The notes: generated by a model from the letters alone, not told the origin. A DNA stretch of 24,904 nucleotides from Promethearchaeota archaeon (GCA_029838195.1 JALGVJ010000047.1:1-24904), one strand, 5' to 3'; counted from the first letter of the stretch, positions 5,436 to 24,904 are shown. A program made the numbers and translations.

Positions 5436-7298
5436 ATGGAATTAAATACCGTAAAAATTCTCGAAATTAACTTGGCTCATGAACACGTGAAAGAAAAAAA
5501 ATGGGATTCAAGTGATGTAAAAAAATATTTGGGAGGACCTGGCTTTACTATTAAGTACTTATTAGAAAGCAAGGCTTACGAGTATGAACCCTTGAATGAA
5601 AAGAGCCCCCTCATTTTCATGACCGGCCTTCTCACGGGGACATCTTACCCTTGCTCTGGATTTTATTCGGTTTCCGCAAGATCACCCCAAACAAATATCT
5701 ATGGGGAAGGGCTTTCTGGTGGTTTTTTTGGAGCAGAGCTCAGAAAGATTTTTAATGGGTTTATTTTTATCAATAAAGCAACAACTCCAGTTTATATAGT
5801 TCTTGATGAAAATAATGTTGAGATCAAGGATGCATCTGAAATATGGGGACTTACCACCGATAAAACAATTAAAACTCTTCAAGATAAGCTTGGAAAGCAT
5901 TTCAAAATAGCTTGCATTGGCCCTGCGGGAGAACATTCAGTTCCTTTATCTTCCATCATGAATGACCATTTTAGAGCCGTAGGAAGAACAGGAATGGGCG
6001 CTGTAATGGGCTCTAAAAATCTAAAAGCCATTGCCGTGAATGGCGGTAAAAAGAAAATAGAATATTATAATAAAGAAAAATTCAATGAGATTTCCAAGAA
6101 ATTATTTAAAGCTTTTAAAGATTCCCCCATGGCGGGCGTTCTTAAAAATTTTGGGACTAATAATATTGATTATTTTGAACGGTTAAATGATGTTCCCCAT
6201 AAAAATTGGACCTTACACAAATTTAGGGGAGTTAACGAGATTTCTGGAGCCGTAGTCTTAGAAAAATTACATGCACGGAGTGCTCCTTGCTTCTCTTGTC
6301 CTTTTTCATGTGGGCGCGTGATTGAAGTTAAGGAAGGACCTTACAAAATTGAAAATGCAGCTGGAGCGGAATACGAAACTACCGCTGCTTTTGGAAGCAT
6401 GTGTTTGATTGATAACGTGGAAGCCATAGCATATCTCAATCATTTATGCAATACATTAGGGCTTGACACGATTTCTACTGGATGCACTATTGCCTTTGCC
6501 ATGGACTGCCATGAAAATGGAATATTAACTCAAGATAATATCGGTTTTTCCCTTAATTGGGGAGATGTTGATGCCGTCATCAAAATCGTGGAATTAATGG
6601 CTAAAAACGAGGGAATTGGAAAAATTCTTGGAAAGGGCTCAAGAAAGGCTGCCGAACTCATTAATAAAGGGGCAGAACAATATTTAGCGGAAATCAAGGG
6701 ATTAGAAGTACCTATGCACGATCCTCGGGCCATATTTCCCTTAGGTTTACAATACGCAACTTCTAACAGGGGTGCATGTCATTTAAGAGGATTCGCAAAT
6801 GATTCCTATTCAGGATTCACGGGTTTCAATGACGCCTTAGGGATTACTAAAGAACTCCCCATTAGGAAAAGGACAATAGATGATCCTGCTTTTGCTAAAG
6901 ATGTTGTCCTCACGCAAAATTTGTCAGAAATTAATAATGCATTAGGAATCTGCCGTCAAACCATCTCATCAGGCACCCAAATTGTCAATAATTTATTTGA
7001 CTTATTAACTAAAGCCATGTATTATTTAACGGGGATGGAATTTACTTTAAAAGAATTGCTTAAAATCGGCGAGCGAATTTTTACCATGAAACGATTGTTT
7101 AATGTAAAATGTGGAATTTCAAGAAAAGATGATAACCTCCCGCCAAGATTACAATATCCTTTAGAGAAAGGAGTGACCAAGAATAAAATCCTTAAGATCG
7201 ATGCCATGCTCGAAAAATATTATAAGATAAGAGGATGGGATGAAAACGGCATTCCGAAAGAAGAAACTTTAAAAAACTTGGAAATTAGGATAACATAA
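5436..7298 (+). CDS. aor: Tungsten-containing aldehyde:ferredoxin oxidoreductase (AOR family)
   Basis: YLGG.G, ARSPQT, GRTGMGAVMGSKNLKA, CFSCPFSC [4Fe-4S] motif, EYET, LGLDTISTG, RGACH and YYKIRGWDENGIP; 620 aa. Confidence 0.93.
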   Translation: MELNTVKILEINLAHEHVKEKKWDSSDVKKYLGGPGFTIKYLLESKAYEYEPLNEKSPLIFMTGLLTGTSYPCSGFYSVSARSPQTNIYGEGLSGGFFGAELRKIFNGFIFINKATTPVYIVLDENNVEIKDASEIWGLTTDKTIKTLQDKLGKHFKIACIGPAGEHSVPLSSIMNDHFRAVGRTGMGAVMGSKNLKAIAVNGGKKKIEYYNKEKFNEISKKLFKAFKDSPMAGVLKNFGTNNIDYFERLNDVPHKNWTLHKFRGVNEISGAVVLEKLHARSAPCFSCPFSCGRVIEVKEGPYKIENAAGAEYETTAAFGSMCLIDNVEAIAYLNHLCNTLGLDTISTGCTIAFAMDCHENGILTQDNIGFSLNWGDVDAVIKIVELMAKNEGIGKILGKGSRKAAELINKGAEQYLAEIKGLEVPMHDPRAIFPLGLQYATSNRGACHLRGFANDSYSGFTGFNDALGITKELPIRKRTIDDPAFAKDVVLTQNLSEINNALGICRQTISSGTQIVNNLFDLLTKAMYYLTGMEFTLKELLKIGERIFTMKRLFNVKCGISRKDDNLPPRLQYPLEKGVTKNKILKIDAMLEKYYKIRGWDENGIPKEETLKNLEIRIT

Positions 7299-7611
7299 AA
7301 AGTAATATCACTTTATCATCTTTTTCAAATCATATTTAATCATGATTAAAAAAAAAAAATAGTGCGTGAACATAAAGAATTCTTCAGAATATCAATATTC
7401 AAATAAAGATGCCATTGCATGCTGTTTCGGCCAAATTTTTTTAATATTCGACTAAAAATTGGTACGATTTCCAAACTAAATTAGATCAATTAAATCTATT
7501 TCTTCTATTCGAAAGAAAATGAGTAATACTATTAGAATTAGGATAAGAATTTTAATTAACCTCATTTTTAAAGAATACAACGTTGAAACCAATATTACAT
7601 GAAAATTTATC

Positions 7612-9609
7612 ATGAGCTATTTTAAAAATATTGTATTATTTAAAGCGGAAGGAGATTATTTTGATGTAAGCTTTTTCGAAGCCAATATTCCTCTATGTTA
7701 TCTTAGCGCCGTCGTGAAAAACCACGTTAATACCGTCCAAATGCCCGTAGACATGCGCATAGATCAAGAGCCTTTCAGAAAATTGGAAGAACACTTAATT
7801 TCAATGAAAAAAAATGGCATGAAATGCGATCTCATGGGAATATCCACCATGACCGCTTCGTTTCCTAATGCCATAAAAGCGGCTCGAATTGCCAAGAAGC
7901 ATGGTGCTTACGTAGTAATGGGAGGATATCATTCTTCGGCTCTCCCAGAGGCAGTCCTGCAGCATCCCGAAGTGGATGCCGTGATCCGCGGAGAGGGAGA
8001 GCTTACCTTTAAAGAATTCGTTCTTAAAGGGCCCTCTAATGAAATAAAAGGATTAAGCTTTAAAGATGAGAAGGGCATCATCCATCATAATCCCGATCGA
8101 GAAAAGATAATGGATCTTGATTCCTTACCTTTTCCAGACCGGAGCCTCCGACCTCCAAATCCCATTTTTAAAAAGCATGATGTAATCGTGACGTCAAGAG
8201 GATGTAATGGAATATGCACGTTTTGTGCTAATAAAGCGGTTCACGGTCGTTGGCGGGGACGCTCACCGGAAAATGTCGTTGAAGAATTAGAAATATTATA
8301 TAATAATAATCCAGATCTTATGGTTCACATTTGGGACGCAAATTTCATGCAAGATCCTGACCGCGTGGCTAAAATAATTGAACTCATTGAGCAGAAAAAC
8401 ATTCGTTTAAAATATTTTTGCGAAATGCGAGTAGATCCTATCGTGAAATATCCCCATCTCATAGAAGGATTGAATCGTATTGGGATGGAATGGATTGCCA
8501 TAGGAATAGAAAGTCCGAATGATGAAAGGTTGAGGCGATTAAAGAAGGGAATAACGAGTAGTACGGTGGAAAAAGCCGTTCAAATATTAAAAAAAAATAA
8601 CATCAAGATTATTGGATATCTAATGATAGGAGATCCCGAAGAGACGGAGCAAGACATGAAAGGATATCCGGTTTATGCTACAGAATTGGGCATTGATAAA
8701 ATCATGCTAGCGATTCAAACACCGCATCCGGGAAGTCGGCTTTTTGAAGAAATGGAAAAAAATGGAGCTATTACTTCTTATGAGTGGGAGAAATATGACA
8801 TTGGGCATTCTGTAGCTCGATTAAACCACATGACTAATGAGCAATGTGAACTTTTAATGGATTGGGGCTGGGGTAAATATTATACGCCCCTATGGGCATT
8901 TTCTCGTAAAAAAACCATGAAAGAAGCTCTATATTTATATTTGTCTTATGCGTGGATTGGATATCCCGGTTTTTTCATACATGCGAGGCAAAAAGAAAAC
9001 GTGGAGGAAAATCTCAAAGCTTATATTTCTGCCATGAGAGGATATTACGACTTGAGTTCTTTCTCTTTTGAAGATTCTGAATATTTAGACGTGTTTAGAG
9101 GATGTGATTTTCAAATTACCTTTGAATTTTCTGATGGAAATGAGATTTCCCTTTTATTCACGATTACGGACGATAAGAAATTTATTATAGAAATTTTTAA
9201 TGGAAGACGACCGAACGTATTACTAAATTACGTGCTTTCCACTAAGGATTATATTAATATCATAAAATCCTTATCTTTACAAACGTGTACTCTTGTTCAG
9301 TGGGGAGGATATAATTTTGGAAACGTGAAAGCAAACATGAGGGTATTTTGGGCATTCTCCCAAATGGTGATGAAGGCCATGCATCTAGATACCTTCAATT
9401 ACCGAAAAATATTTAGATATCTCATGCTTGGAATAAAATTTATCCCCAGAAAGATATATGAAGTGCTCATGGAGGAAAAAATAACTTTTAACAAGCAAGC
9501 TAAATGGATTGATAAGATTTCAGAAATTGGAAAAAATATATTATATAAAACCATGTTTTTTCCCTATGTCACATTGATTCCGGTAAATAAAAGCAATATC
9601 ATCATTTAA
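7612..9609 (+). CDS. Cobalamin-binding radical SAM protein (BchE/HpnP/Grs-like architecture) with extra C-terminal domain
   Basis: B12 domain (MGIS, VVMGGYH, VIRGEGE), TSRGCNGICTFC, GIES and TPHPGS motifs, then about 200 aa of extension. Confidence 0.9.
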   Translation: MSYFKNIVLFKAEGDYFDVSFFEANIPLCYLSAVVKNHVNTVQMPVDMRIDQEPFRKLEEHLISMKKNGMKCDLMGISTMTASFPNAIKAARIAKKHGAYVVMGGYHSSALPEAVLQHPEVDAVIRGEGELTFKEFVLKGPSNEIKGLSFKDEKGIIHHNPDREKIMDLDSLPFPDRSLRPPNPIFKKHDVIVTSRGCNGICTFCANKAVHGRWRGRSPENVVEELEILYNNNPDLMVHIWDANFMQDPDRVAKIIELIEQKNIRLKYFCEMRVDPIVKYPHLIEGLNRIGMEWIAIGIESPNDERLRRLKKGITSSTVEKAVQILKKNNIKIIGYLMIGDPEETEQDMKGYPVYATELGIDKIMLAIQTPHPGSRLFEEMEKNGAITSYEWEKYDIGHSVARLNHMTNEQCELLMDWGWGKYYTPLWAFSRKKTMKEALYLYLSYAWIGYPGFFIHARQKENVEENLKAYISAMRGYYDLSSFSFEDSEYLDVFRGCDFQITFEFSDGNEISLLFTITDDKKFIIEIFNGRRPNVLLNYVLSTKDYINIIKSLSLQTCTLVQWGGYNFGNVKANMRVFWAFSQMVMKAMHLDTFNYRKIFRYLMLGIKFIPRKIYEVLMEEKITFNKQAKWIDKISEIGKNILYKTMFFPYVTLIPVNKSNIII

Positions 9610-9730
9610 ATTAGTATTTTAATCCTTTTTAATTGGCCATGAAAGTAATCATAGAAAAGAAAATTTTTTATGAATTTACTGATGTATAACATTAAAAATT
9701 AAAACAAATAGAAGAAAAATTGTTAATATT

Positions 9731-11401
9731 TTAATATTTCAAGATAGTACCACTTGCTGCTGAAGAAACTAATGCTTTATATTTCAATAAGGCCTTGCTT
9801 TTGGTTTCTTTTTCAATAGGGTGCCATTTTTTAAAGCGATTTTTGATCTCCTCATCTGACACCTTAAAGTTTAAACTCTTGTTAGGAATGTCAATTTGGA
9901 TGATATCTCCATCTTGTACCACGGCAATGGGGCCACCCACATAAGCTTCTGGACTTACATGACCGATACAGGGTCCAGAAGTAGCACCTGAAAATCGTCC
10001 GTCAGTTATCAAGGCTACCTTGTCTAAATTTTTGCGTAACATTAAAGTTGCCGTAACTGCCAATAATTCGGGCATTCCCGGCGCTCCTTTAGGTCCTTCA
10101 TAGCGCATGATAATAACGGAACCGTTAGGGATTTTATTGGCAGCCAGGGCTTTAAGGACATCCCTCTCATAATCAAAACAATAAGCTGTTCCTTCAAATT
10201 TTAACATGGCGGGATCTTTTACTGCGGATTGTTTAACAACGGCGCCGTCAGGGGCTAAATTACCTTTCAAGACCACCGTACCTCCTTTAGGATAAACCGG
10301 ATCATGAAACGGTTTAATTACCTTGTCATCTAATACTTCCCTTTTACGAATGATTTTTTTCAAGGGAACTCCAGAAACCGTCATGCAATCTAAATGGAGG
10401 AATTCCTTTAATCTATTCATTACCGCAGGGATTCCTCCTGCTTTATATAAATCTACAATTCCAAAATCCCCCGAGGGCGAAACATTTACAATTGTGGGGA
10501 TTTTATCACTAAATTCATTGAATTTCTCCAAGTTCAACTCAATACCCATTTCATGGGCAATAGCTGGTAAATGTAGGGCAGAATTAGTCGACCCTCCAAT
10601 TGCCATATCTACCATCATAGCATTTTCCAGGGCTTCTGGTGTCATAATCATTGAGGGGGTAATCCCTTTTCGAAGTAATTCCATAATTTGGCGTCCAGAA
10701 TTCTTAGCAATAACGAATTTTTTCCTACTAACTGCCGGTGAAGTAGCGGCATCCGGTAATGTCATGCCAAAAGCTTCCATTAAACATTGAAAGGTATTAG
10801 CTGTTCCCATTATTTCACAAGCTCCATGGGTACCACATGTAATGCAATTTAATTTATGTTCAAAATCATCATAAATTCCTTGTTCAATTCCTTCATAATC
10901 GGACATGAATCTAATTTCATACATGTTAGGGCCTCCTGGCACGCAAATAGTAGGAATATCTAACCTGATGGCAGCCATTAAGACAGCAGGATTAATTTTA
11001 TCACAAGAAGATAGGGTTACCATAGCATCTAACCGATGTGCTTCCATCATCAATTCAATAGAGTCAGCAATCACTTCTCTTTGAGGTAAAATGTATTTCA
11101 TTCCCTCATTTCCATTAGCCCATCCATCACACGGTCCCACGGTGCAAAATTCAAAAGGAATGCCACCTGCTTCTATGATTCCATGCTTTACGGCTTCTGC
11201 TAATTGATTGAGATGTTTGTGGCCAGGATTCAGCTCATTCCATGTATTCACTATCCCAATAAATGGCTTGTTCTTGATTTCTTTATCTTCTAACCCTAAC
11301 CCTTTGAGGATGCCCAATGTTACATAATTAAATGGCGTCGTTTTTATAGTCTCAAAAATCGTATTGCTTTTTTCCTTCAAATTTTCCTTTTCCTTGCTCA
11401 T
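9731..11401 (-). CDS. ilvD: IlvD/Edd-family dihydroxy-acid or sugar-acid dehydratase
   Basis: NPGH.HL, PCDG, SCDK, GAC..MGTANT, GGSTN, GNLAPDGAVVKQSA, RYEGPKG.PGMPE, ITDGRFSGAT.G.CIGHVSPEA. Substrate is uncertain. Confidence 0.9.
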   Translation of the reverse strand: MSKEKENLKEKSNTIFETIKTTPFNYVTLGILKGLGLEDKEIKNKPFIGIVNTWNELNPGHKHLNQLAEAVKHGIIEAGGIPFEFCTVGPCDGWANGNEGMKYILPQREVIADSIELMMEAHRLDAMVTLSSCDKINPAVLMAAIRLDIPTICVPGGPNMYEIRFMSDYEGIEQGIYDDFEHKLNCITCGTHGACEIMGTANTFQCLMEAFGMTLPDAATSPAVSRKKFVIAKNSGRQIMELLRKGITPSMIMTPEALENAMMVDMAIGGSTNSALHLPAIAHEMGIELNLEKFNEFSDKIPTIVNVSPSGDFGIVDLYKAGGIPAVMNRLKEFLHLDCMTVSGVPLKKIIRKREVLDDKVIKPFHDPVYPKGGTVVLKGNLAPDGAVVKQSAVKDPAMLKFEGTAYCFDYERDVLKALAANKIPNGSVIIMRYEGPKGAPGMPELLAVTATLMLRKNLDKVALITDGRFSGATSGPCIGHVSPEAYVGGPIAVVQDGDIIQIDIPNKSLNFKVSDEEIKNRFKKWHPIEKETKSKALLKYKALVSSAASGTILKY

Positions 11402-11625
11402 TATTTCATTTCACTCTTTTTTAAATGAAGGTAATTCAATATTCTATTTGCGTAAATCGTGACTTCATGAATTAATTTATTTAACACGTTCTTCCATAAA
11501 CGGAGTTTTTTTTTCTTAAAAACAATCAGCTTATTTATTCTAATATTAACCAATTTTAAAACTATTTCAGTAAAGCTATTTATGTAATAAGATATTCAAA
11601 TAATTATTATTCTTTTGGTGAGAGT

Positions 11626-12297
11626 ATGGAAAAGAACAAAATTGAATTAATTCTAAAAGAGTTCTTCAAACTCTACACGTGCGCCGTTTCTGACGCCATT
11701 GATGAATTAGGCCTAGAACCGGGATTTTTAAATTACAAGATTAGACCCATTTGGCCCGGAGCTCGCATGGTAGGGCTTGCCGGCACCATGAAATGGGTGA
11801 AATCTGAAAAAGAACTCGATAGAAACATTGTTGCAAGATTAGTGAAATTCATGAAATTAGTGCCTCCTTTTCCCATCATGTGCGTTAACATGTCGGGAGA
11901 AATGATTGCAGCGGGATTAGGACAGAGCACTAGTCGCATGCTTCAAAAATTAGGTTTTCAAGGAGGGTTAGTAGATGGGCCCGTGCGAGATATTGCTCAA
12001 TTGATAGACATTAAGTTTCCTTTATTCGCTCGAGGAATTGTATGTTCTTCCGTTAGGGGGCGAATGGATGTAGATATGGATTCTCTGATGAAACCCATTG
12101 AATGTGGAGGGAGAATCATTAATCCAGGGGATCTAATCTTTGGAGATATTAACGGCGTGGTAGTAGTGCGATCTGAATCTATTGAACAAGTATTAGAAAA
12201 AGCCAAAGAAATCATTTCAACTGACAAATGGTGGTTTGAACAATTAGAGAAAGGTAGAGAGCCATCTGATATAGAAAAAGAACGACCCCTCCCTTAA
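11626..12297 (+). CDS. RraA/HMG-aldolase family protein
   Basis: AVSDA.D, MVG.A.T, G.LVDGPVRDI, FPLFARG, P..CGG..I.PGDLIFGD.NGVVVV. Confidence 0.88.
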   Translation: MEKNKIELILKEFFKLYTCAVSDAIDELGLEPGFLNYKIRPIWPGARMVGLAGTMKWVKSEKELDRNIVARLVKFMKLVPPFPIMCVNMSGEMIAAGLGQSTSRMLQKLGFQGGLVDGPVRDIAQLIDIKFPLFARGIVCSSVRGRMDVDMDSLMKPIECGGRIINPGDLIFGDINGVVVVRSESIEQVLEKAKEIISTDKWWFEQLEKGREPSDIEKERPLP

Positions 12298-12478
12298 GGA
12301 TAAACTCCTTTAGTGGAAAGTTCCTACTGAAAATAATCTTTTTTCCATTTTTCCAAGGTTCATGTCCCTTCATGACACTCCCACCATGCTCAAGAATTCA
12401 TGAAAAGATTAGTTTTAAATTAAATTCTGCTTAAATTTTAATTACTAATAATAGTTAAATGAGGTTTAACCAGAACTC

Positions 12479-13876
12479 ATGGTAAGCAATGAGCAAGAAT
12501 ATAAAATTACTAAAGGAACTACCATAGCCTATTGTTTTGCTAATTTTGCGGATAACTCCATCCAGCAAACGTTTAATTTCCTCTTATTTACTTTTTATTA
12601 CGCTGTTGTCGGATTGAACGTCAATTTAATCACTCTGGGATTCATATTATGGTCTGTATGGAATAGTATAAACGATCCTATTTTAGGAGCTTTATCTGAT
12701 CGCACGAAAACCAAATGGGGAAGGCGCAAACCTTATATAATCGCTGGAATCATCCCGACATGCATCATCATGATTCTATTATGGACACCACCCATAGGAG
12801 CTTCTCAAATTACGATTTTTCTATATTTCTTGATCATCATTATATTGTACGACACCTTTTATACGATGTTTAATTTAAATCAAATGAGCCTTTTCCCGGA
12901 AATGTACTTAGATTTAGAAGAGAGATCTAAAGCCAACACGGTATTACAAGTTGGAACCGTGTTGGCCTTAATTGTTGCATTCATTAGCCCCAGTATATTC
13001 ATTCCAAAATATGATGATCCCCAATATTTTTCTCGATACGCCCTTGCCGGTCTCTTCATTACGATCATAGTGGCAATTTCCATCATCATTTTTATCAAGT
13101 ATGGGCTGAAGGAACGGATTGAATTTTCAAAAGACCCTGAAAGTGCACCATCGTTTTTGAATTCCTTGAAGTATTCCATAAAAAATAAAGCATTCGTGAC
13201 CTACATCATTGCGAATTATGGCATGTGGTATTCTTTTGGTTTGCTAACAACCCTTACGCCGCTTTATGGAAGTTTTGTTTTAAATATCGATAACTCCCTC
13301 CTCGTTTCCATTTTACCCGGCTTTTCTTTCATATCGGCTATTTGTTTCATGATCATTTGGCAAAAAGTGTCGATCAAAATGGGAGTGAAGAAAGGTTTGA
13401 TGTTAGCGTTAAGCAGCTTATTAATCACTGCGTTGCCTTTCATGTTCATTTCAGATTTTATTTCCGGCATGATTGTTTTCATCATTGCAGGATTTACACT
13501 TTCTGGCATGCTTTTCTTCAGGAGGGTCACGCTTGCTGCGGTTATTGATGATGATGAGTTGAAAACGGGTGTGAGAAGGGAGGGTGGTTTTTATGGTATT
13601 GATGCATTAATTACAAAATTTTCGACGATAGCCATTTTCTTGACAATAAGTAGCGTGTTTAACAGTACGGGATGGGCGATTTTTGATCCGATTGGGACGA
13701 CGGAAGAGACGATATTTGGGCTAAGAAGTTTAATGTATATTTTCCCCGCAATAGCATCGGTCGTGGGGGTTATTGCCATGTATTTTTTCCCCATAACTAA
13801 AGAGAGATATGAACAGATTACTAAAGAAGGAGAGGCTTTACACGCGAAGAAAAAAGAAAAAGTACTAGGCGCTTGA
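12479..13876 (+). CDS. MFS transporter, glycoside-pentoside-hexuronide (MelB/MFS_2) family
   Basis: About 12 hydrophobic segments; NDP.LG.LSDRT.TKWGRRKPY and VID.DELKTG.RREG.FYG motifs. Confidence 0.92.
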   Translation: MVSNEQEYKITKGTTIAYCFANFADNSIQQTFNFLLFTFYYAVVGLNVNLITLGFILWSVWNSINDPILGALSDRTKTKWGRRKPYIIAGIIPTCIIMILLWTPPIGASQITIFLYFLIIIILYDTFYTMFNLNQMSLFPEMYLDLEERSKANTVLQVGTVLALIVAFISPSIFIPKYDDPQYFSRYALAGLFITIIVAISIIIFIKYGLKERIEFSKDPESAPSFLNSLKYSIKNKAFVTYIIANYGMWYSFGLLTTLTPLYGSFVLNIDNSLLVSILPGFSFISAICFMIIWQKVSIKMGVKKGLMLALSSLLITALPFMFISDFISGMIVFIIAGFTLSGMLFFRRVTLAAVIDDDELKTGVRREGGFYGIDALITKFSTIAIFLTISSVFNSTGWAIFDPIGTTEETIFGLRSLMYIFPAIASVVGVIAMYFFPITKERYEQITKEGEALHAKKKEKVLGA

Positions 13877-14163
13877 GAGGGAAGAATTGAAATAGTAAAC
13901 TCTAAAAATCCAATTATTATTTTTTTTCTTTTAATTGGCAACTATTATAAATCTAAAAGTGAAAAGCATTTTTTGTAATTAAAATTAGTATTGACCGTTA
14001 TTGTAGTGAAGAATTGAATAATGGTTAGTCTCTTTAGGAATTTTCTTTTTCAAGCATCTTATTAGTGTAATATTAATAATATCATTCAGAAAAAGAAAAA
14101 AAATTTTAAGTTTTAAAAAAAGATGTTTTAAAATAAATTTTAGTGAATCGTGTTTTTCATTTC

Positions 14164-14598
14164 TTATGGTGGTCCAAGTAATTTAACCTTTCTTTTCTCA
14201 TCTAAATGGCGCTTCATGGGTAAAAAATCCGTTTTAAGAATTGCAATTTCAGCAAGATAAGCTACTTCACTTTCGGGTTCCAAATGCCCTCCATATACTT
14301 GATCATCTTTACACGAAACTACAACATGAAGATTAGGTTCTTTATTTGCAATTATTCCACTGACGCTCAACAGTTCAAGAGGTTTTTCCAAATGGTAAAT
14401 GGAGTCGGAGGGAGGAAAATCCGTATGATTAATATAGTGCATATTGCACGTTTTTAACGTTCCAATACCAGATATTACAATGCCATTCTTAATATCGTAT
14501 TGCTCTATGGCATGAGTTATGCTTTCTAATAACATTTCTCCCGGTTCTATTCCTAACGTGAAAATTTCAGCCGTGCCTATCCCACTCATGACTTTCAT
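14164..14598 (-). CDS. PPC/DUF296 domain protein
   Basis: PGE.LLESI, SGIG.L, LELLS.SG.I, xLH and YGGHL motifs. AGGAG precedes the start. It lies 30 nt downstream of the second RraA gene. Confidence 0.85.
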   Translation of the reverse strand: MKVMSGIGTAEIFTLGIEPGEMLLESITHAIEQYDIKNGIVISGIGTLKTCNMHYINHTDFPPSDSIYHLEKPLELLSVSGIIANKEPNLHVVVSCKDDQVYGGHLEPESEVAYLAEIAILKTDFLPMKRHLDEKRKVKLLGPP

Positions 14599-14628
14599 AA
14601 ATTGTTCTCCTTTTTAATTATTTATTTT

Positions 14629-15300
14629 TTATATAGTATCATCGGGTTCCATGCTTAAAGTTTTATAATGCGATCTTCGTACTTTTTTATCTTGTTCATG
14701 TTCTTCATGAGCATATTTAGCTACATCAAGGGCTATTTCTTGAGGGCAAACAACAACACCGTCGCCATCTGCCACAATAACGTCTCCAGGATAGACTGTA
14801 ACACCGCCAACAGCTACAGGGATATCACAATCATCATATTGTAAGAGCCCTTGAACCATTTTCTGGCTAATCATTGCACTCCAAAAAGGGACTTTTTCCA
14901 ATATTATTTCATCCGTATCACGCACTCCTCTATTTGTAACATATCCTCTGGCTCCTTTAATTCTTCCCAGTAAAGAATTTTCTGATCCAAATAATCCAGC
15001 ATTTACTCCACTCGCATCGATTACGATAAAATCTCCTTCTTTAATAGTTGCCATCCAAGCATAGGAACATATTTCCCTATAATATTTGTTAGCCCATCTC
15101 ATGTATTTTTTGGGCTCAATTCCTGGAATATTCCCCCTATATGGGAGGTATCGCACGGTTTTTGCGATGCCATAAGCTCTAGTCCGAAAGAGAGGACGTA
15201 TATTAGGAACCATTGATCCATAATCATGATACATTAACGTGTCCAATCCATCTCTCACATCAGCAACGCGTAATTCTTCAAAAGCGTTTAATAATTCCAT
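14629..15300 (-). CDS. Second RraA/HMG-aldolase family protein
   Basis: LRVADVRDGLD, G.AKT, EGD.IVID, GVRD.DEI and PV.VGGV.V.PGD.IVADGDGVVV.P. Confidence 0.85.
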   Translation of the reverse strand: MELLNAFEELRVADVRDGLDTLMYHDYGSMVPNIRPLFRTRAYGIAKTVRYLPYRGNIPGIEPKKYMRWANKYYREICSYAWMATIKEGDFIVIDASGVNAGLFGSENSLLGRIKGARGYVTNRGVRDTDEIILEKVPFWSAMISQKMVQGLLQYDDCDIPVAVGGVTVYPGDVIVADGDGVVVCPQEIALDVAKYAHEEHEQDKKVRRSHYKTLSMEPDDTI

Positions 15301-15882
15301 TCTTTTTTAATTATCCATATTCGGACACAAACAACTTAATTTCTGTTTAAAAAAAATTTAAAAATAAGACAATAAAATTCTAAATTTTTAAAATAAATTT
15401 ATTAAGCATGAATTAATATTTTTTATCTTTAGAGAGTAAGAATATTATTCGTCTTTGACAAAAATCTTCATTAAGATTTTTTTTTTTAGGTGTGGATAGG
15501 TGCCCATATTCTTCATGGAATTGGATTTTAGGAAGATAATAGAAAATGTTTTACTACATAATTTGAGATATTTAAGAGAGATTTAACAAAAAGGTAAGGA
15601 AATAGATTGGTGAGAGTGGAAAACAAGATCAGCATCGATTAGAAAGTGCGATTGATTTTTTTAAATAGTTTTTCTCTAATAGAGTACTTTTATTGAGTTG
15701 TTTAGATATTTTCGGTTCCATATCATGTTTTTTCTCAATAATAAAAGAGAACTGCGAATAAGATATTAAGGAAGGAGGGATTTTAAACATAAGGAAAAAA
15801 ACGAAGAGGTTAAATGCGTGAAATCGAAATCGAAATAGATTATTCTTAAAATTCAAATAGGAGTTTTCCTTTTCTTTAAAAA

Positions 15883-18405
15883 ATGTCTATCAAGAAAAAC
15901 GAAAAAGTGAATCGTGGTTTAACTATAGAGGACATTAATGCTCTGGGGAAAGTTGTCGAGTTAGTAGAGATATTCATGAAAAAAAATCCATTGGAACTCG
16001 CTAGAAAAAAGCTTAAAAAAGTTGGCGAGCAGTTAGAAAAATTAAAGGCAATAGAAAGCAATCGGGAAAAATTATCCATATTTTATAATCGTCTCACGAA
16101 AAATTTACGTTCTATTATTAAAGCTGAAGTAACGCCCGACCTTTTCTTTATTATTGGAGGTCATGGAGGAATTATAATTAATGATAATGGATTTTGTGAA
16201 TTTGATTCACCAACTTTTGCGTTCGATCGCCTCATAGAACGCATGAAATTGGCAAAAGAAACAAACAATCCCTACAATATTGAGGTGGCCGTTTCATGTT
16301 TAGAGTGGTTGAATCGAAATGATTCCGATAAGTTCTTAAAATTCAAGAATATTTTTGAAACAGGAAAGTTTGAAATCATTAATCCGACATGGTCGCAACC
16401 CTATGCATTATTAATAGGAGCAGAATCGAATATCAAACAATTTGAAGTGGGTTTAAAAACCTTACGTGAATTAGAACTGCCATCCGAGCTCTATTATGCT
16501 TCAGAAAGTTCCTTGCATCCACAGATACCACAAATTCTGAAAAATTTTAATATTTCAAGAGTGTCCTTGCGTTCGCGATTATTAGGAGTAAATCCAGCTG
16601 CAATTTCTCCCCACATTACGTGGATTGGGTTAGACGATACGAAAATTGATGCTATTGTCGACCAGTCGGGATTATATAATGGTGAATTTTTTCACGGTAC
16701 TTTTTTTCAAGAACTTCCAAGCTTATTATTCCAAGCCGTTTCCCGCCCTTTTATAAAAGAAATATTATATTCTTCCTTAGAAGATTTTGTCATGCCTCTT
16801 CCCTATCAAGAAGAAATATGGAGAGTACAATCAAGGGAAGAAATTTTTGGAAAATTCATTACTTGCTCAGAAGCCTTTGAATTTCTCTTGTTAAATGGTG
16901 AATATAAATATAAAAGAGATGATTTCATGTTAGGGGATTATATTTTTAATACACCCGATTTACTACTTCAAAATAAAAATGCAGAAATTTCCTTGATTAC
17001 TGCTGAAATTGTCAATTGTTTAGCATGTTTTGAAGACTCTTCCGAAAACGCAGAAAATGATGTATTTCTTGAAAATTGTTGGAAGAATTTATTGCTCACG
17101 CAAGCCCATGATTGTCATGCCGTGCCATTCATTCGTACAGGAGATTATTCAAGCAGGCAATTAAGTAAAGAAGAATTTAATAAACTAGATTTGAATGCAT
17201 GTGAATATAACATTTCGCAATTAAGCATTAAAATTCTTGAAGAACTTCAAGAAAAATGCGGAAAATTCATAAAAAAAAATCTTAAAAAGATCATGAAAAG
17301 TGTTGAGGGAAGTAAAAGTTCAGATAAAAAATATCCCGATGTCATGGTTTTTAATCCTACCTCTATCTTTAGAAGAGAATTAGTTGAAATCGAGGCAGAT
17401 TTGGCCGGGGTGAAAGATCTTTCCTTGATAGGAGCAGATGAACCAATTCCTTTTGAACTCATGGAGGGTAAATTATATTTCTTAATAGAAGTTCCTGCAT
17501 TTGGATATACAATTTGTACATTTCAAGAAATAAAGGAAGAACAACCCATACTCATACCAGAATTTTATTATAAGGCGGAAATCTTAAAAGATGGAGAAAC
17601 AATTCAAATTAATTTTAAGAATAAACCAATCATTACCTTGAAATTTAATTCGGATCGTCCATACCAATTATCAATCCAGAAAGAATATTCAAATAAAGTC
17701 TTTCAATGCTTGGAAATTCTCGGAACATCTAACGATTCTAAACAACATTTTAAAATGTCCATTACTCAACAAGAAAAAGGCGAAAGATTAGAATTCCGTT
17801 TAGAAGCGTCTTTTCTTAAAGAATTGATTCTACAACCAGAAATTCAGATAAATGAAACTCATGTGAATTACCCTTTTGGGATTGAAAAAACGGGACGAAC
17901 AAAAATTCAAGCATTAGACTTCATGTGGTTAAAAGGAACAGATAAAGGCATTCTTTACATTCAAAAAAATAGCCCTCAATTCTTAATAAATCGAGAATCG
18001 TTTGAAGTAAGGAATGTTTTGAAGAAAGCAAGCGTTCATGAATTTTGTATTGCATGTACAGCCAATAACTCTCATGAATATCATGATTGCATGAATATCA
18101 TGCAATCTTATTATTATAAGGTTTTAACAACGATTAAGTACGATGATATTGATCATGCAATGAAAAAACATTCCTTTTTTCAGATTGAGCCTAATGTTTC
18201 TGTTATAAGTTTCTGGAGGCGAAAAAATAATATTTTCATTCGGTTTTTTAATCCTAGTGATAAAAAAGCTACAGTATCGATTCAAGGCGACATGATTTCT
18301 AATAAAATTGAAAAGGTAAATTTTCTTTTAGAAAAAATTGCTATTCTTGAAGAACCTACAATTATAATGGAACCTTGGAAAATCCTTACTTTCAAATTAA
18401 GTTAA
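15883..18405 (+). CDS. Glycoside hydrolase, GH38-like architecture with GH57-like catalytic barrel
   Basis: GKFEIINPTWSQPY..LIGAESNIKQF, YYASESSLHPQIPQIL, WIGLD, middle-domain WKNLLLTQAHD, and VFNP, EVPAFGY, IRFFNP, PWKILTF beta-domain motifs. Confidence 0.7.
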   Translation: MSIKKNEKVNRGLTIEDINALGKVVELVEIFMKKNPLELARKKLKKVGEQLEKLKAIESNREKLSIFYNRLTKNLRSIIKAEVTPDLFFIIGGHGGIIINDNGFCEFDSPTFAFDRLIERMKLAKETNNPYNIEVAVSCLEWLNRNDSDKFLKFKNIFETGKFEIINPTWSQPYALLIGAESNIKQFEVGLKTLRELELPSELYYASESSLHPQIPQILKNFNISRVSLRSRLLGVNPAAISPHITWIGLDDTKIDAIVDQSGLYNGEFFHGTFFQELPSLLFQAVSRPFIKEILYSSLEDFVMPLPYQEEIWRVQSREEIFGKFITCSEAFEFLLLNGEYKYKRDDFMLGDYIFNTPDLLLQNKNAEISLITAEIVNCLACFEDSSENAENDVFLENCWKNLLLTQAHDCHAVPFIRTGDYSSRQLSKEEFNKLDLNACEYNISQLSIKILEELQEKCGKFIKKNLKKIMKSVEGSKSSDKKYPDVMVFNPTSIFRRELVEIEADLAGVKDLSLIGADEPIPFELMEGKLYFLIEVPAFGYTICTFQEIKEEQPILIPEFYYKAEILKDGETIQINFKNKPIITLKFNSDRPYQLSIQKEYSNKVFQCLEILGTSNDSKQHFKMSITQQEKGERLEFRLEASFLKELILQPEIQINETHVNYPFGIEKTGRTKIQALDFMWLKGTDKGILYIQKNSPQFLINRESFEVRNVLKKASVHEFCIACTANNSHEYHDCMNIMQSYYYKVLTTIKYDDIDHAMKKHSFFQIEPNVSVISFWRRKNNIFIRFFNPSDKKATVSIQGDMISNKIEKVNFLLEKIAILEEPTIIMEPWKILTFKLS

Positions 18406-18553
18406 AAAATTTTATTTCTTTATCCCTTAATCTCCCACGGTTCTAAGAATATTATAACTCATGTCCTTGAGATTATCGATTTTTTTAGCATGAAATCGTT
18501 CATAAAACCATAACACGCATTTTATTCTCGTTCTAAATATTAATGAAGAATGT

Positions 18554-18569
18554 GTGAACTTAAGTTCAT
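18554..18569. repeat. Palindrome GTGAAC-TTAA-GTTCAT (copy 3 of 4)
   Basis: Perfect 14-bp palindrome TGAACTTAAGTTCA at 18555-18568, about 30 nt upstream of a TATA-like GATAAACCTTTAATTA. Confidence 0.75.
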
Positions 18570-18680
18570 TTTTACCAAGAGAAAGTAAAATAAGATAAAC
18601 CTTTAATTACAAACATGATAATTTTACTCATGAGTTTTTTAGTGTAATTCCATGAAAAGGATAAAAAAAAGTGAGAAAAG

Positions 18681-19637
18681 ATTCAAGTAATAAATGTGCA
18701 TGGGCATCTCTTCCATAAAAATCACGCGTCTGATAAGTTTTATGAAATATATGCTAAGTTAATCGCAAAACAAATGAATTTATCCATTGAACAAGTGCGG
18801 GAGCGCGTGATACCCATGTTATGGGCATGTGATATCAACGCTCATGTAGAAGCAATGGATGAGGCTGGAATTGATAAAGCTGTTGTCATGGCCGTTGATT
18901 GGGGCATGAATGAAGATGTGGGAGAAGCGCCTTGGTCTATTGAAGAAATAAATAAACAAGTATATGAACAAGTAAAGGAATATCCGGATAAAATACACGC
19001 TCTATGTGCGGTTGACCCTCGAAGGGGAGAAAAAGCCATTCAGTTGGTTGAAAAAGCAGTACAAGAATGGGATATGAAAGGCGTAAAATTCCATCCAACT
19101 GCGGGCTATTATCCCGATGATCCTGCTTTTTATCCTCTTTATGAAAAATGCGTGGAATTAGATATTCCCCTCTGTTCTCATACGGCTGCTACAATAAACG
19201 CTCCCTTCATGTCTAAATTTGCTAATCCGATTTACCTTGATACGGTGGCGGCAAAATTTCCAGATCTAAAAATATTAATGATCCATTTCGGAAGCCTTAG
19301 TTATACAATGAATTGTGTAGAGATCATGGCCTGTCGTCCAAATGTTCATACAGAATTTTCGGGATATCAAGCTCATGCCACGACCATGCCAGATTATTTT
19401 TTAAAGACATTAAGATATATTTTGGATGCTCCTACGCTCATTGGGCCCCCTATTCGCGAAAAATTAATGTTTGGTACGGATTGGCCTTATTTAGAAACAA
19501 TTATGGATCAAAAAACATGGGTGGAATGGTTTAACAACATTCCACAATTGGCTGAAACTCTAAATATTAAATTTAAGCAGAGAGAAATTAAATATATCTT
19601 AGCCAAGAATGCAGAGAAATTTTTTAATTTAAAGTGA
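18681..19637 (+). CDS. Amidohydrolase_2 family metallo-hydrolase/decarboxylase (track start GTG 18696; probable start ATT 18681 or ATA 18690)
   Basis: INVHGH, MDEAGIDKAVV, KGVKFHP, PLYEKC.EL.IP...H, FPDLKILMIH.G and LMFGTDWP motifs. Confidence 0.88.
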   Translation: MQVINVHGHLFHKNHASDKFYEIYAKLIAKQMNLSIEQVRERVIPMLWACDINAHVEAMDEAGIDKAVVMAVDWGMNEDVGEAPWSIEEINKQVYEQVKEYPDKIHALCAVDPRRGEKAIQLVEKAVQEWDMKGVKFHPTAGYYPDDPAFYPLYEKCVELDIPLCSHTAATINAPFMSKFANPIYLDTVAAKFPDLKILMIHFGSLSYTMNCVEIMACRPNVHTEFSGYQAHATTMPDYFLKTLRYILDAPTLIGPPIREKLMFGTDWPYLETIMDQKTWVEWFNNIPQLAETLNIKFKQREIKYILAKNAEKFFNLK

Positions 19638-19761
19638 AAACAATCAAGAAAGATTAACTTGATTTAAAACATGTGGCAAGAGATCCAATCTCTTTAAACG
19701 AGAATACATTTAGATTTTTAATTAAACGTGAATTAATTAAAAATAATGAGTAAATTAAACG

Positions 19762-21072
19762 ATGATAATTAAAATGCAGAAAATTGTATTAATAGGAGCA
19801 GGCTCATTGCAATTTGGATTGGGTTCAGTAGGAAGCATAATTGAAAGTAAAATATTAAAAGGCTCCACTATATGCTTACATGATATAAATGAGAAAAATT
19901 TAGAATTGGCAGCTGAAGCTTGCAGATCTGCGGTGGATAAAAAAGGCTTAGACTTCGAAATACAATCCACCACGAATAGAAAGGAGGCTTTAAAAGGGGC
20001 AACCTTTATTATAAATGCAATTGAAATCCCTCCTAGATTTGGATTGCTTAGATGGGATTTTGAATTTCCCATGATGTTTGGATCGACTCAGATCACGGGA
20101 GAGAACGGTGGACCGGGAGGATTATTTCATTCCTTAAGAGTAATTCCTCCCATATTAGAAATCTGTGAAGATATTCAAAGATTATGTCCCAATGCATTTT
20201 TTATTAATTATTCGAATCCCATGAGCAGGATTTGCTTAGCTATTCACAGGAAATTCCCTAAGATTAGATTTGTCGGGTTATGCCATGAAATAGCTCATGC
20301 GGAAATGCTACTTCCAAGAATCCTTGACACACCTCTAACGAACATTGAATTTAAAGCGGGAGGTTTAAATCATTTTGGCGTGATTTTAGAGGCAAGGTAT
20401 CGTGATACCGGTAAAGATGCTTATCCGGATATAAGGGCACGTGCCGTGCCCATTCTTGAGGAATTTGGTAAAGGAGAAGATTATGAATTAATAAAATTCA
20501 TTTTAAAGACCTATGATTACTTGCCCTACACTACGGACAATCACTATGGAGAATACATGTCTTGGGCTTGGGAAGTTGCAGATCTTCTTCATGGAAGGGA
20601 ATTTTGGGAAGGGTATGAAAAACTTTCCATGAAGCAATATGAAAGAATAAAAAGGTTCATTGAAAAAGGAAATGGAGATAAACTTGTAAAACCAGATGGC
20701 GAGCGAGCTATTCCAATAATAGAGGGAATTATAACGGACAGCCACCATGAGGAATTATCCGTAAATCTTCCTAACGACGACATCATTACAAATTTACCAA
20801 GAGATCTCGTAGTTGAATGTCCGGCAATCGTGACCAAAGATGGATTAGAACCCATTAAATTGGGAGATTATCCAAAAGGTTTGGCTGCCCTCTTGCGTAC
20901 ACAAGCATCCGTTCAAGATTTAGTGGTTGAAGCAATATTACAAAAATCCAAGAAACTTGCATATCAGGCATTATTAGCAGATCCAGTTATTAATAGCACG
21001 AGTCAGGCAGAAAAAATATTAAATTTCATGTTAGAATGGGAAAAAAAATACATTCAAATCAAGTTAGAATAA
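19762..21072 (+). CDS. GH4 NAD+/Mn2+-dependent glycosidase (alpha-glucosidase/alpha-galactosidase group)
   Basis: KIVLIGAGS..F, GE.GGPGG.F..LR.IP, INYSNPM, VGLCHE, GLNHF and VVECP motifs. The start may be ATG 19774. Confidence 0.93.
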   Translation: MIIKMQKIVLIGAGSLQFGLGSVGSIIESKILKGSTICLHDINEKNLELAAEACRSAVDKKGLDFEIQSTTNRKEALKGATFIINAIEIPPRFGLLRWDFEFPMMFGSTQITGENGGPGGLFHSLRVIPPILEICEDIQRLCPNAFFINYSNPMSRICLAIHRKFPKIRFVGLCHEIAHAEMLLPRILDTPLTNIEFKAGGLNHFGVILEARYRDTGKDAYPDIRARAVPILEEFGKGEDYELIKFILKTYDYLPYTTDNHYGEYMSWAWEVADLLHGREFWEGYEKLSMKQYERIKRFIEKGNGDKLVKPDGERAIPIIEGIITDSHHEELSVNLPNDDIITNLPRDLVVECPAIVTKDGLEPIKLGDYPKGLAALLRTQASVQDLVVEAILQKSKKLAYQALLADPVINSTSQAEKILNFMLEWEKKYIQIKLE

Positions 21073-24224: not shown

Positions 24225-24904
24225 CTAATCACCAAGCTTTTTTCCTTGTAAGGTTAGCTCCAGTTGGAGTGTTAGCTGCTCTGAAAACGAGCCTATAACA
24301 CCAATATCTTCTATTGATGACACCCTTTTGAGACAGTTTCTCGCCCTCCGCAAAGTTTTGCGGTCCGAGACGGAGAAATTCTTTCCTGCCTCCTTTTTGG
24401 AGGAATGGGTTGAAATTCCATAAATTGGATGAAAACAAGTATTTTTCATAAGGAGCGAACATGCGATTTTCGCAATTTTTGATGTAACGATACAACACGC
24501 AAGCTTGGTGGAAAACTTTCCTTTTTGTCGCATCGTTCTCGTAGCGTATCTTTTTAACGTGGATTCTTGCTTGGTCAAATTACAAAGAACAACGGCGGCA
24601 TTATAAAAAATGGTCCTTAGGAACTTATTCGAATGTCGAGAAACATGAGCAGAATATTCCTTTCCCGCTGAAGATACGACTCTTGGACAACACCCGCAAC
24701 ATGCGGAAAAGGCTTCTCTTGATTTAAATCGCCAAATATCTTTTTTATACAAGCTCCTAACGTTTCCTTTTGCCCAATAAAATGAAGGAAAAATTCATTG
24801 ACCCATTGATAATTTAAATCCAGGGCTTTAGGGCGGATTCCGGCACGGTCTAAGGTTTTTTTAATGCGATTTTTCAAGGCAGTACGATCTTTTTCAAGCC
24901 TCGC
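24225..24904 (-). mobile_element. IS110-family (DEDD) transposase, frameshifted and probably internally deleted, truncated by window end
   Basis: Upstream frame RLEKDRTALKNRIKKTLDRAGI matches the IS110 coiled-coil. Downstream frame DIWRFKSREAFSACCGCCPRVVSSAGK...VSRHSNKFLRTIFYNAA matches the Transposase_20 region with its catalytic-Ser loop. The frames switch near 24740-24752. Confidence 0.85.

Follow-up and report, generated by a model that had tools for sequence, protein, structure and literature searches.

We analysed a DNA window of 24,904 nucleotides, the entire contig C60 of the Promethearchaeota genome G000 (GCA_029838195.1, JALGVJ010000047.1; 4.5 Mb, 97% complete), and found that a 15.6-kb span within it (5436-21072), read in a first-pass annotation as one kinase-free, Entner-Doudoroff-like pathway of glycoside catabolism, is not a single pathway. 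Within it lies a conserved core, comprising a GH38-like protein, an IlvD/Edd dehydratase, the RraA-fold protein RraA1, an orthologue of one particular aldehyde:ferredoxin oxidoreductase (AOR) and a slot for a GPH transporter, and this set usually includes a LarA-family epimerase, though the window has none. We think it probable that these proteins, LarA included, together break down one glycoside without phosphorylation. The module would then be, as the evidence supports in part, a conserved variant of non-phosphorylative Entner-Doudoroff (npED) catabolism assembled from non-orthologous parts, undescribed in the literature we searched, where no paper combined RraA, IlvD, aldolase and dehydratase.

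Conservation of the core in Lokiarchaeia and related arrangements in bacteria

The genes and families named in the first-pass annotation were all recovered as described by open reading frame calls and Pfam/NCBIfam profiles. Homologues carry the database names Promethearchaeota, Lokiarchaeota and Helarchaeota, which puts the genome in Promethearchaeota/Lokiarchaeia. The AOR-family gene (5436-7298, plus strand, PF02730 and PF01314) is followed, within the core, by the dehydratase gene (9731-11401, minus strand, PF00920 and PF24877), which is transcribed divergently from RraA1 (11626-12297, plus strand, PF03737, RraA/HMG-aldolase fold), and then by the genes of a GPH/MFS_2 transporter (12479-13876, plus strand, PF13347) and of the GH38-fold glycosidase-like protein (15883-18405, plus strand), recognized by matches of its structural model to GH38 structures. 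The span is not one operon: its genes are split over both strands into five or more blocks, separated by gaps of 121-582 nt. AOR, GPH, GH4, amidohydrolase and IlvD/Edd genes are abundant in G000 (14, 77, 7, 5 and 3 paralogues, respectively), and so their presence alone says little and a test at the level of orthologues was needed; the two RraA genes and the single GH38-like gene of the genome all sit in the window.

Co-distribution was assessed across 161 genomes, a fixed set from the class Lokiarchaeia; these genomes are kin, such that the counts are descriptive and not independent trials. RraA1 orthologues were found in 37 of the 161 genomes; in 30 of these 37 a dehydratase of the same clade (clade A, see below) lay within 6 kb of RraA1, mostly in divergent orientation, and a GH38-like gene lay within 13 kb of it, likewise in 30 of 37. 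The AOR orthologue was present in 27 genomes, every one of them RraA1-positive, within 13 kb of RraA1 in 24 of the 27, and the two genes are direct neighbours in G001, G057, G058, G325, G326 and locus L102. This linkage persists across families f1, f5 and f6 with several gene orders, and co-location of the core extends over five families, lineages named Helarchaeales among them. At least 12 genomes encode a LarA-family protein (PF09861) inside the cluster, and the cluster transporters are 27-42% identical to that of the window (85% in G001, of the same genus as G000), the slot being filled from different subfamilies. Thus, the first-pass idea of a linked dehydratase, RraA1, GH38-like protein and AOR was borne out by both co-location and co-distribution. 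The same annotation held that its idea would fall if the dehydratase grouped with and acted only as a branched-chain enzyme, or if the genes were dispersed in every relative; neither was found, as the dehydratase lies off the ilv-operon clade and the core recurs in relatives.

Related arrangements were found in bacteria, namely an operon with the order GntR, LarA, short-chain dehydrogenase/reductase (SDR), SCP2-fused RraA, IlvD, metallo-beta-lactamase-fold (MBL) protein, GH38-like protein and DHDPS (L101), and a deltaproteobacterial contig with IlvD, MBL and GH38-like genes (L198). The bacterial GH38-like protein belongs to a different subfamily from the lokiarchaeal one, so it is the slot that is conserved and not an orthologue. 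Other near relatives of RraA1 are found in an AOR-RraA-LarA arrangement (L102), next to an enolase-family acid-sugar dehydratase (L099) or next to an SDR (L100), and distant ones (38-42%) in unrelated contexts. Among the bacterial genomes with a clade-A member, no RraA1 partner was found in Desulfatibacillum and MAG105, and only a distant RraA in Solincola and Haliea. One distant RraA, in an uncultured genome (L105, 4597-10669), lies near a KDPG-type aldolase, a PfkB kinase, a glycyl-radical enzyme and an SCP2 protein.

The enzymes of the core

The first-pass annotation had proposed an IlvD/Edd phylogeny as a check, and in a maximum-likelihood tree of 85 sequences, bacterial members included, the window dehydratase fell in a clade of its own (clade A, SH-aLRT 100), outside the ilv-operon dihydroxy-acid dehydratases (DHADs) and apart from AraD/Edd/YjhG. 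Three main types of IlvD were found in relatives: clade A (57 of the 161 genomes), a near-universal class B and the copies of an ilvB-ilvH-ilvC-ilvD-leuCD operon (2 genomes), with no ilvB or ilvC next to any clade-A copy among the loci mapped. The clade-A protein is about 15 residues shorter than the Mycobacterium tuberculosis DHAD ahead of the third Cys motif, and its best PDB matches are DHADs. A second proposed check, for an ilvD beside ilvBC, revealed none next to the two ketol-acid reductoisomerase (KARI) genes of G000, leaving room for some promiscuous DHAD activity of the clade-A enzyme. Sister clade-A dehydratases (G024:C3 and G001:C1) adjoin a DHDPS-like protein, a split UxaA and LarA in place of RraA, indicating that a second pyruvate-aldolase/dehydratase fold occupies the same slot. 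We propose that the clade-A protein is a dehydratase of aldonates or other 2,3-dihydroxy acids.

In RraA1, the pair Arg121-Asp122 and Asp200 are invariant, the Arg-Asp pair being kept also in RraA2, the second RraA of the window. HMG/CHA-type aldolases reportedly carry the motif D-X20-R-D or G-X20-R-D-X2-E/D (Mazurkewich 2014); the second metal-site acid is missing from the RraA1 clade, which reads Q-X20-R-D-X2-Q/R, and RraA2 reads S-X20-R-D-X2-E. RraA1 shares its fold, the Arg-Asp pair and an acid at the position of Glu199 with the HMG/CHA aldolase (LigK/GalC, PDB 3NOJ), and shares its fold with FlDet, which works on a keto-deoxy sugar acid (PMC8563752). It differs in having Gln at the position of Asp102, in its identity of less than 35% to any solved structure and in its context, a glycosidase, a dehydratase and an AOR as opposed to aromatic ring cleavage or alginate. 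The earlier statement that RraA/HMG proteins are pyruvate aldolases was too broad: characterised homologues mostly are (PMC5065237), but FlDet is a keto-deoxy-glucarate (KDGR) dehydratase/decarboxylase of the RraA family, after which an aldehyde dehydrogenase acts (PMC8563752), and given this precedent aldolase is not the sole candidate role of RraA1. RraA1 is likelier to be a keto-deoxy-acid aldolase than a dehydratase.

The GH38-like protein (840 amino acids, model pLDDT 77) matches GH38 structures with TM scores of 0.6-0.69, and the multi-domain fold of the family was recovered in the predicted model (Foldseek E 1e-31 and TM 0.67 to SpGH38; Atlas TM 0.72-0.78). It resembles the GH38 alpha-mannosidases SpGH38 and MngB (PMC2815779) in its whole architecture, its first His, the Arg by the nucleophile, a candidate acid/base Asp and the His-Asp of the middle domain, at a structural identity of 12-14%. 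Its active site, however, appears rebuilt: the nucleophile Asp of GH38 is replaced by Glu (Glu208 aligns to the MngB Asp; Glu in 120/120 homologues), and the HxD zinc motif (ligands His13/Asp15; PMC2815779) is lost to His94-Gly-Gly (118/118 homologues covering the region), with Gly-Gly and a conserved CEFD loop standing in for the zinc-ligand Asp and the stacking Trp. R232, D301, H409 and D410 are invariant in all 120 homologues, D301 being, by alignment, the candidate acid/base. Glu is also the nucleophile of GH57. Of 301 Asgard genomes, 32 were found to encode a member of this family, and all 32 belong to the Lokiarchaeia/Helarchaeales class. Taken together, the protein looks like an active glycosidase of altered specificity and not a canonical alpha-mannosidase. 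With both RraA1 and the GH38-like protein off the canonical active-site motifs, the substrate of the module and the aldolase role are put forward here only as proposals.

The AOR orthologues are 60-77% identical to one another and less than 40% to other AORs. The window AOR has the AFOR_N and AFOR_C domains, its nearest structures are tungsten AORs (9mqx, 1aor) and its EYE and RGxCH motifs align with theirs; by family, its metal would be tungsten. An SDR orthologue was found next to RraA1 in three of the 161 genomes (G042, G046 and G039), representing two lineages, none of which has the AOR orthologue; on contigs that extend further, a lactonase-like protein of MBL fold lies alongside. A dehydrogenase with a lactonase and an aldehyde oxidoreductase both give an aldonate from an aldose, and so this reaction may fall to AOR, which alternatively or additionally may oxidise the aldehyde released by RraA1, often its neighbour.

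The cluster LarA scores best on malate/lactate racemase models, none of them above cut-off. As it is nearest to models for racemases of small hydroxy acids and far from the hexonate-epimerase model, it may act on the product of AOR rather than on an aldonate. Among LarA homologues are epimerases of gluconate and mannonate at C2 (PMC7583248), and glycerate is a further substrate of the family (PMC11851776). Like the LarA-family gluconate 2-epimerase GntE (PMC7583248), the cluster LarA is a nickel-pincer enzyme encoded beside sugar-acid genes, but it lies outside the hexonate-epimerase group. Both LarA and the SDR-MBL alternative to AOR had been overlooked in the earlier scheme. The LarA copy of G000 itself lies on C56 by UxaA and DHDPS-like genes, and LarC is encoded in the genome.

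The proposed route, its substrate and its rivals

From the gene identities, their co-location and co-distribution, the dehydratase clade and the altered motifs we infer the reactions, their order and the substrate. The GPH transporter would import a glycoside, which the GH38-fold enzyme would hydrolyse; the freed aldose would be oxidised to an aldonic acid by AOR, or by the SDR and the lactonase-like MBL protein in lineages without AOR, and LarA would invert C2 where required. The aldonate would then be dehydrated to a 2-keto-3-deoxy acid, RraA1 would cleave this in a retro-aldol reaction to pyruvate and an aldehyde, and AOR with ferredoxin would oxidise the aldehyde to an acid. IlvD/Edd enzymes favour 2R acids; given this preference, a manno-type 2S aldonate would provide the rationale for LarA.

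As proposed, aldonate dehydration and cleavage to pyruvate and an aldehyde would be shared with the archaeal npED pathway of Thermoproteus, Sulfolobus and Thermoplasmatales (PMC2063504) and with the Dahms pathway. Aldehyde oxidation would be shared too, and is possibly ferredoxin-dependent here as in archaeal npED, where glyceraldehyde oxidation of this kind is included (PMC2063504); by gene presence, G000 has both the linked AOR and a MOFRL-type glycerate kinase. The module differs from npED in lacking a glucose dehydrogenase (neither the window nor the AOR-type clusters yielded an aldose dehydrogenase or an accompanying lactonase), in having a new IlvD/Edd clade in place of the enolase-type gluconate dehydratase, an RraA fold in place of the DHDPS-type KD(P)G aldolase (an enzyme of DHDPS or HpcH type in the npED and Dahms pathways), and LarA and a GH38-fold enzyme attached to it. 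The earlier observation of no sugar kinase, NAD-dependent sugar dehydrogenase or DHDPS aldolase holds for the window, but the genome encodes kinases and a DHDPS-like protein elsewhere (12 PfkB-family matches, the MOFRL-type (DUF4147) glycerate kinase on C1 and the DHDPS-like protein on C56). 'Kinase-free' is therefore a property of the cluster in the mapped loci, not of the genome, and phosphorylation of the cluster's products may follow at a later stage, as it does in archaeal npED (PMC2063504).

If correct, this reading names a specific catabolic route for about a quarter of Lokiarchaeia genomes, places one AOR among the many of these genomes in a defined metabolic context, and offers three uncharacterised enzyme groups, namely the GH38-fold family, whose active site is rebuilt, the IlvD/Edd clade and the RraA clade. 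Breakdown of sugar acids that spends no phosphate and yields ferredoxin would be relevant to how syntrophic Asgard archaea gain their energy and to cell-free biocatalysis.

A number of observations weigh against the proposed route. The kinship of the genomes overstates the independence of the counts, and two Helarchaeales-type genomes (G057 and G326, 82% and 93% complete) have RraA1, AOR and GH38 without a clade-A dehydratase. No shared operator was found in 17 RraA1-IlvD intergenic regions, which held AT-rich promoter-like sequence and no conserved palindrome (a sigma-70 promoter scan, with a model unsuited to archaea, gave a chance-level result). In RraA1, the HMG/CHA aldolase's metal-binding Asp102 is replaced by the clade-specific Gln100. 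The dehydratase scores 628.1 on TIGR00110, the ilvD equivalog (cut-off 618.15), and far lower on the AraD and Edd models, whose cut-offs it does not reach, though TIGR00110 does not discriminate here, since its cut-off is also exceeded by the paralogue of class B and by the copy in the bacterial operon. In approximately unbiased (AU) tests, made on a 40-row alignment under LG+G4 without Edd and YjhG, forcing clade A together with the lokiarchaeal ilv-operon DHAD cost 35 log units (p 0.073) and with AraD 1.7 log units (p 0.47), and neither was rejected. Six genomes without the SDR also lack the AOR orthologue, their cluster contigs being short or ending beside the dehydratase, and a seventh has a fragment. 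Aldose oxidation by AOR is a proposed step without tested precedent, and the cluster LarA (G021) scores 35.8 bits on the hexonate-epimerase model (LarAH18-20), whose cut-off is 500.

As for the substrate, we lean towards the glycoside of an ordinary hexose, deoxyhexose or pentose, since the GPH, UxaA and DHDPS neighbours of the dehydratase clade make a soluble sugar the default. A lipid-linked polyol seems unlikely, a sulfonated sugar or uronate somewhat more so, and any other substrate improbable. For sulfoquinovose and other sulfonated sugars, no family support was obtained among the models scored, nor any relevant paper in the literature searched. The sulfo-ED pathway for sulfoquinovose runs through a glycosidase, a dehydrogenase, a lactonase, an IlvD/Edd dehydratase, an aldolase and aldehyde oxidation, and the split SAF and UxaA genes near the sister paralogues resemble its SuyAB layout; however, no family match to its enzymes was found, and for the split UxaA the sole match was galactarate dehydratase, at a score under the cut-off.

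In a more speculative reading, which we hold to be unlikely, AOR might act directly on the free aldose, or on the aldehyde of a lipid-linked polyol, in addition to the cleavage product, thereby replacing the NAD dehydrogenase and lactonase. If so, the outcome would be a glycolysis free of phosphate and linked to ferredoxin throughout, supplied by a new Glu-nucleophile glycosidase family; in its strongest form, it would convert a bacterial lipid polyol, for example a bacteriohopanepolyol chain, to pyruvate and C32 hopanoic acid in anoxic sediment. A glycolysis of this kind had been suggested for Pyrococcus, an idea that was later given up.

The rival that survives best, unlikely though we hold it to be, resembles the Weimberg pathway: RraA1 would be an FlDet-type dehydratase (or dehydratase/decarboxylase), a pentonate or hexarate would yield alpha-ketoglutaric semialdehyde, and AOR would oxidise this to 2-oxoglutarate. 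The activity of FlDet and the aldehyde dehydrogenase that follows it (PMC8563752), the missing HMG/CHA Asp of RraA1 and its adjacency to AOR in the six loci named above are all consistent with it, and dehydratases of this sort are known too from the DHDPS fold, which the sister cluster contains (PMC13398020). On the other hand, RraA1 retains the Arg-Asp pair and the distal acid of the aldolase site, and the majority of its characterised homologues act as pyruvate aldolases (PMC5065237).

In a second rival, which we regard as improbable, the same chemistry trims a glycolipid head or polyhydroxy chain to pyruvate and a long-chain aldehyde, and AOR yields a fatty or hopanoic acid. Bacterial relatives do carry fusions of the lipid carrier SCP2 to RraA (P0244) and to the clade-A dehydratase (P0413 and P0472). 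Clade members also occur in Desulfatibacillum alkenivorans (by an MMPL transporter and an MBL protein), Ca. Solincola, Haliea and Deltaproteobacteria, bacterial ones lie near acyl-CoA dehydrogenases, and the SDRs score best on HpnA/OleD/3-beta-HSD-like models, all far below cut-off. Yet the fusions number three in about 270 sequences, their SCP2 domains being alike and probably the outcome of one event in one lineage, and none is found in Lokiarchaeia; the C-terminal tail of the radical SAM protein of the window matched none of the three SCP2 domains in a shallow alignment; the sister paralogues sit by UxaA and DHDPS-like genes, typical for soluble sugar acids; and no link of these genes to hopanoid decay was found in the literature searched. 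An Atlas feature search with the SCP2-RraA fusion gave no usable match.

The full version of the first-pass annotation, in which nine genes form one pathway, appears very doubtful. It adds to the core a DUF296/PCC protein (14164-14598, minus strand, PF03479) and its partner RraA2 (14629-15300, minus strand), of a second RraA subfamily 26% identical to RraA1, an Amidohydro_2 protein (18696-19637, plus strand) as the lactonase, and a MelA-like GH4 glycosidase (19762-21072, plus strand, PF02056 and PF11975). The GH38-like, DUF296, RraA2 and GH4 genes are adjacent in G001 too, consistent with a genus-specific extension, but synteny within this genus takes in unrelated genes as well (URO-D-like and alpha/beta hydrolase), and among about 60 loci mapped G001 is the only other one with GH4 beside the core, GH4 having seven paralogues. 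RraA2 was found in five of the 161 genomes, beside the GH38-like gene only in G001, whereas in G039 and G041 its contigs lack the core; these observations place RraA2 and DUF296 in a separate, accessory module. Orthologues of the amidohydrolase occur in 20 genomes, nine of them RraA1-positive, and in all genomes other than G000, G001 included, they lie away from RraA1.

Finally, that the dehydratase is simply the branched-chain DHAD amid incidental neighbours, a view in keeping with its TIGR00110 score, PDB matches and AU p value of 0.073 and with the missing ilvD by the KARI genes, is highly improbable, as clade A is patchy and extra to the near-universal class B copy, other Lokiarchaeia have their ilv-operon copies in a clade distinct from it, mapped clade-A copies have no ilvB or ilvC beside them, and the linkage to RraA1 and the GH38-like gene is conserved.

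Accessory genes and other loci

A B12-binding radical SAM gene (7612-9609, plus strand, PF02310 and PF04055, under every NCBIfam cut-off) lies inside the span but was unlisted in the first-pass annotation; an orthologue of 74% identity lies beside the dehydratase in G001 only. The protein has a 250-residue C-terminal extension with no Pfam family, and its best NCBIfam models are HpnJ/BchE, far below cut-off. In the amidohydrolase frame (18672-18700) there is no ATG ahead of the first His motif and an in-frame ATT at 18681 would restore the first strand, as fits a non-AUG start or, alternatively, a single-base error by a run of A. The RraA2-DUF296 pair recurs apart from the core in G039, and RraA2 adjoins SIS-like and GH29-like genes, read from the sequence by eye, in G039 and G041. 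A 440-470-residue RraA-domain protein (e.g. G036:C12, 5404-5856), probably a hexulose-6-phosphate synthase/RraA fusion, is common in relatives and was not found in G000.

The class B IlvD of G000 (C39, 11168-23666, L005; L077-L096 in relatives) lies with one or two Gfo/Idh/MocA genes and a thiamine diphosphate (ThDP) enzyme that reaches no acetolactate-synthase cut-off; with these neighbours and its own clade we rejected it as the housekeeping ilvD, and its locus possibly serves another sugar-acid pathway rather than branched-chain synthesis. The two KARI genes are in tandem on C67 (18022-20237), without adjacent ilvB or ilvD, amid sugar-related genes. The C56 locus (16014-26178) holds LarA, the large part of UxaA, the DHDPS-like gene, ECF-type transporter genes, a GPH gene and a PdxA-like gene; the clade-A dehydratase sits in clusters of this type in G024 and G001 and is missing from C56 in G000. 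In genus g9 and others (L057-L059, L068, L069, L071 and L074) the GH38-like gene lies apart from the other module genes or occurs in their absence, and in one cluster (L213, 9282-11705, G381) a gene for an 807-residue protein of no assigned family is inserted between the dehydratase and the GPH transporter. The window itself ends in the remnant of an IS110-family transposase (24225-24904), at the contig end.

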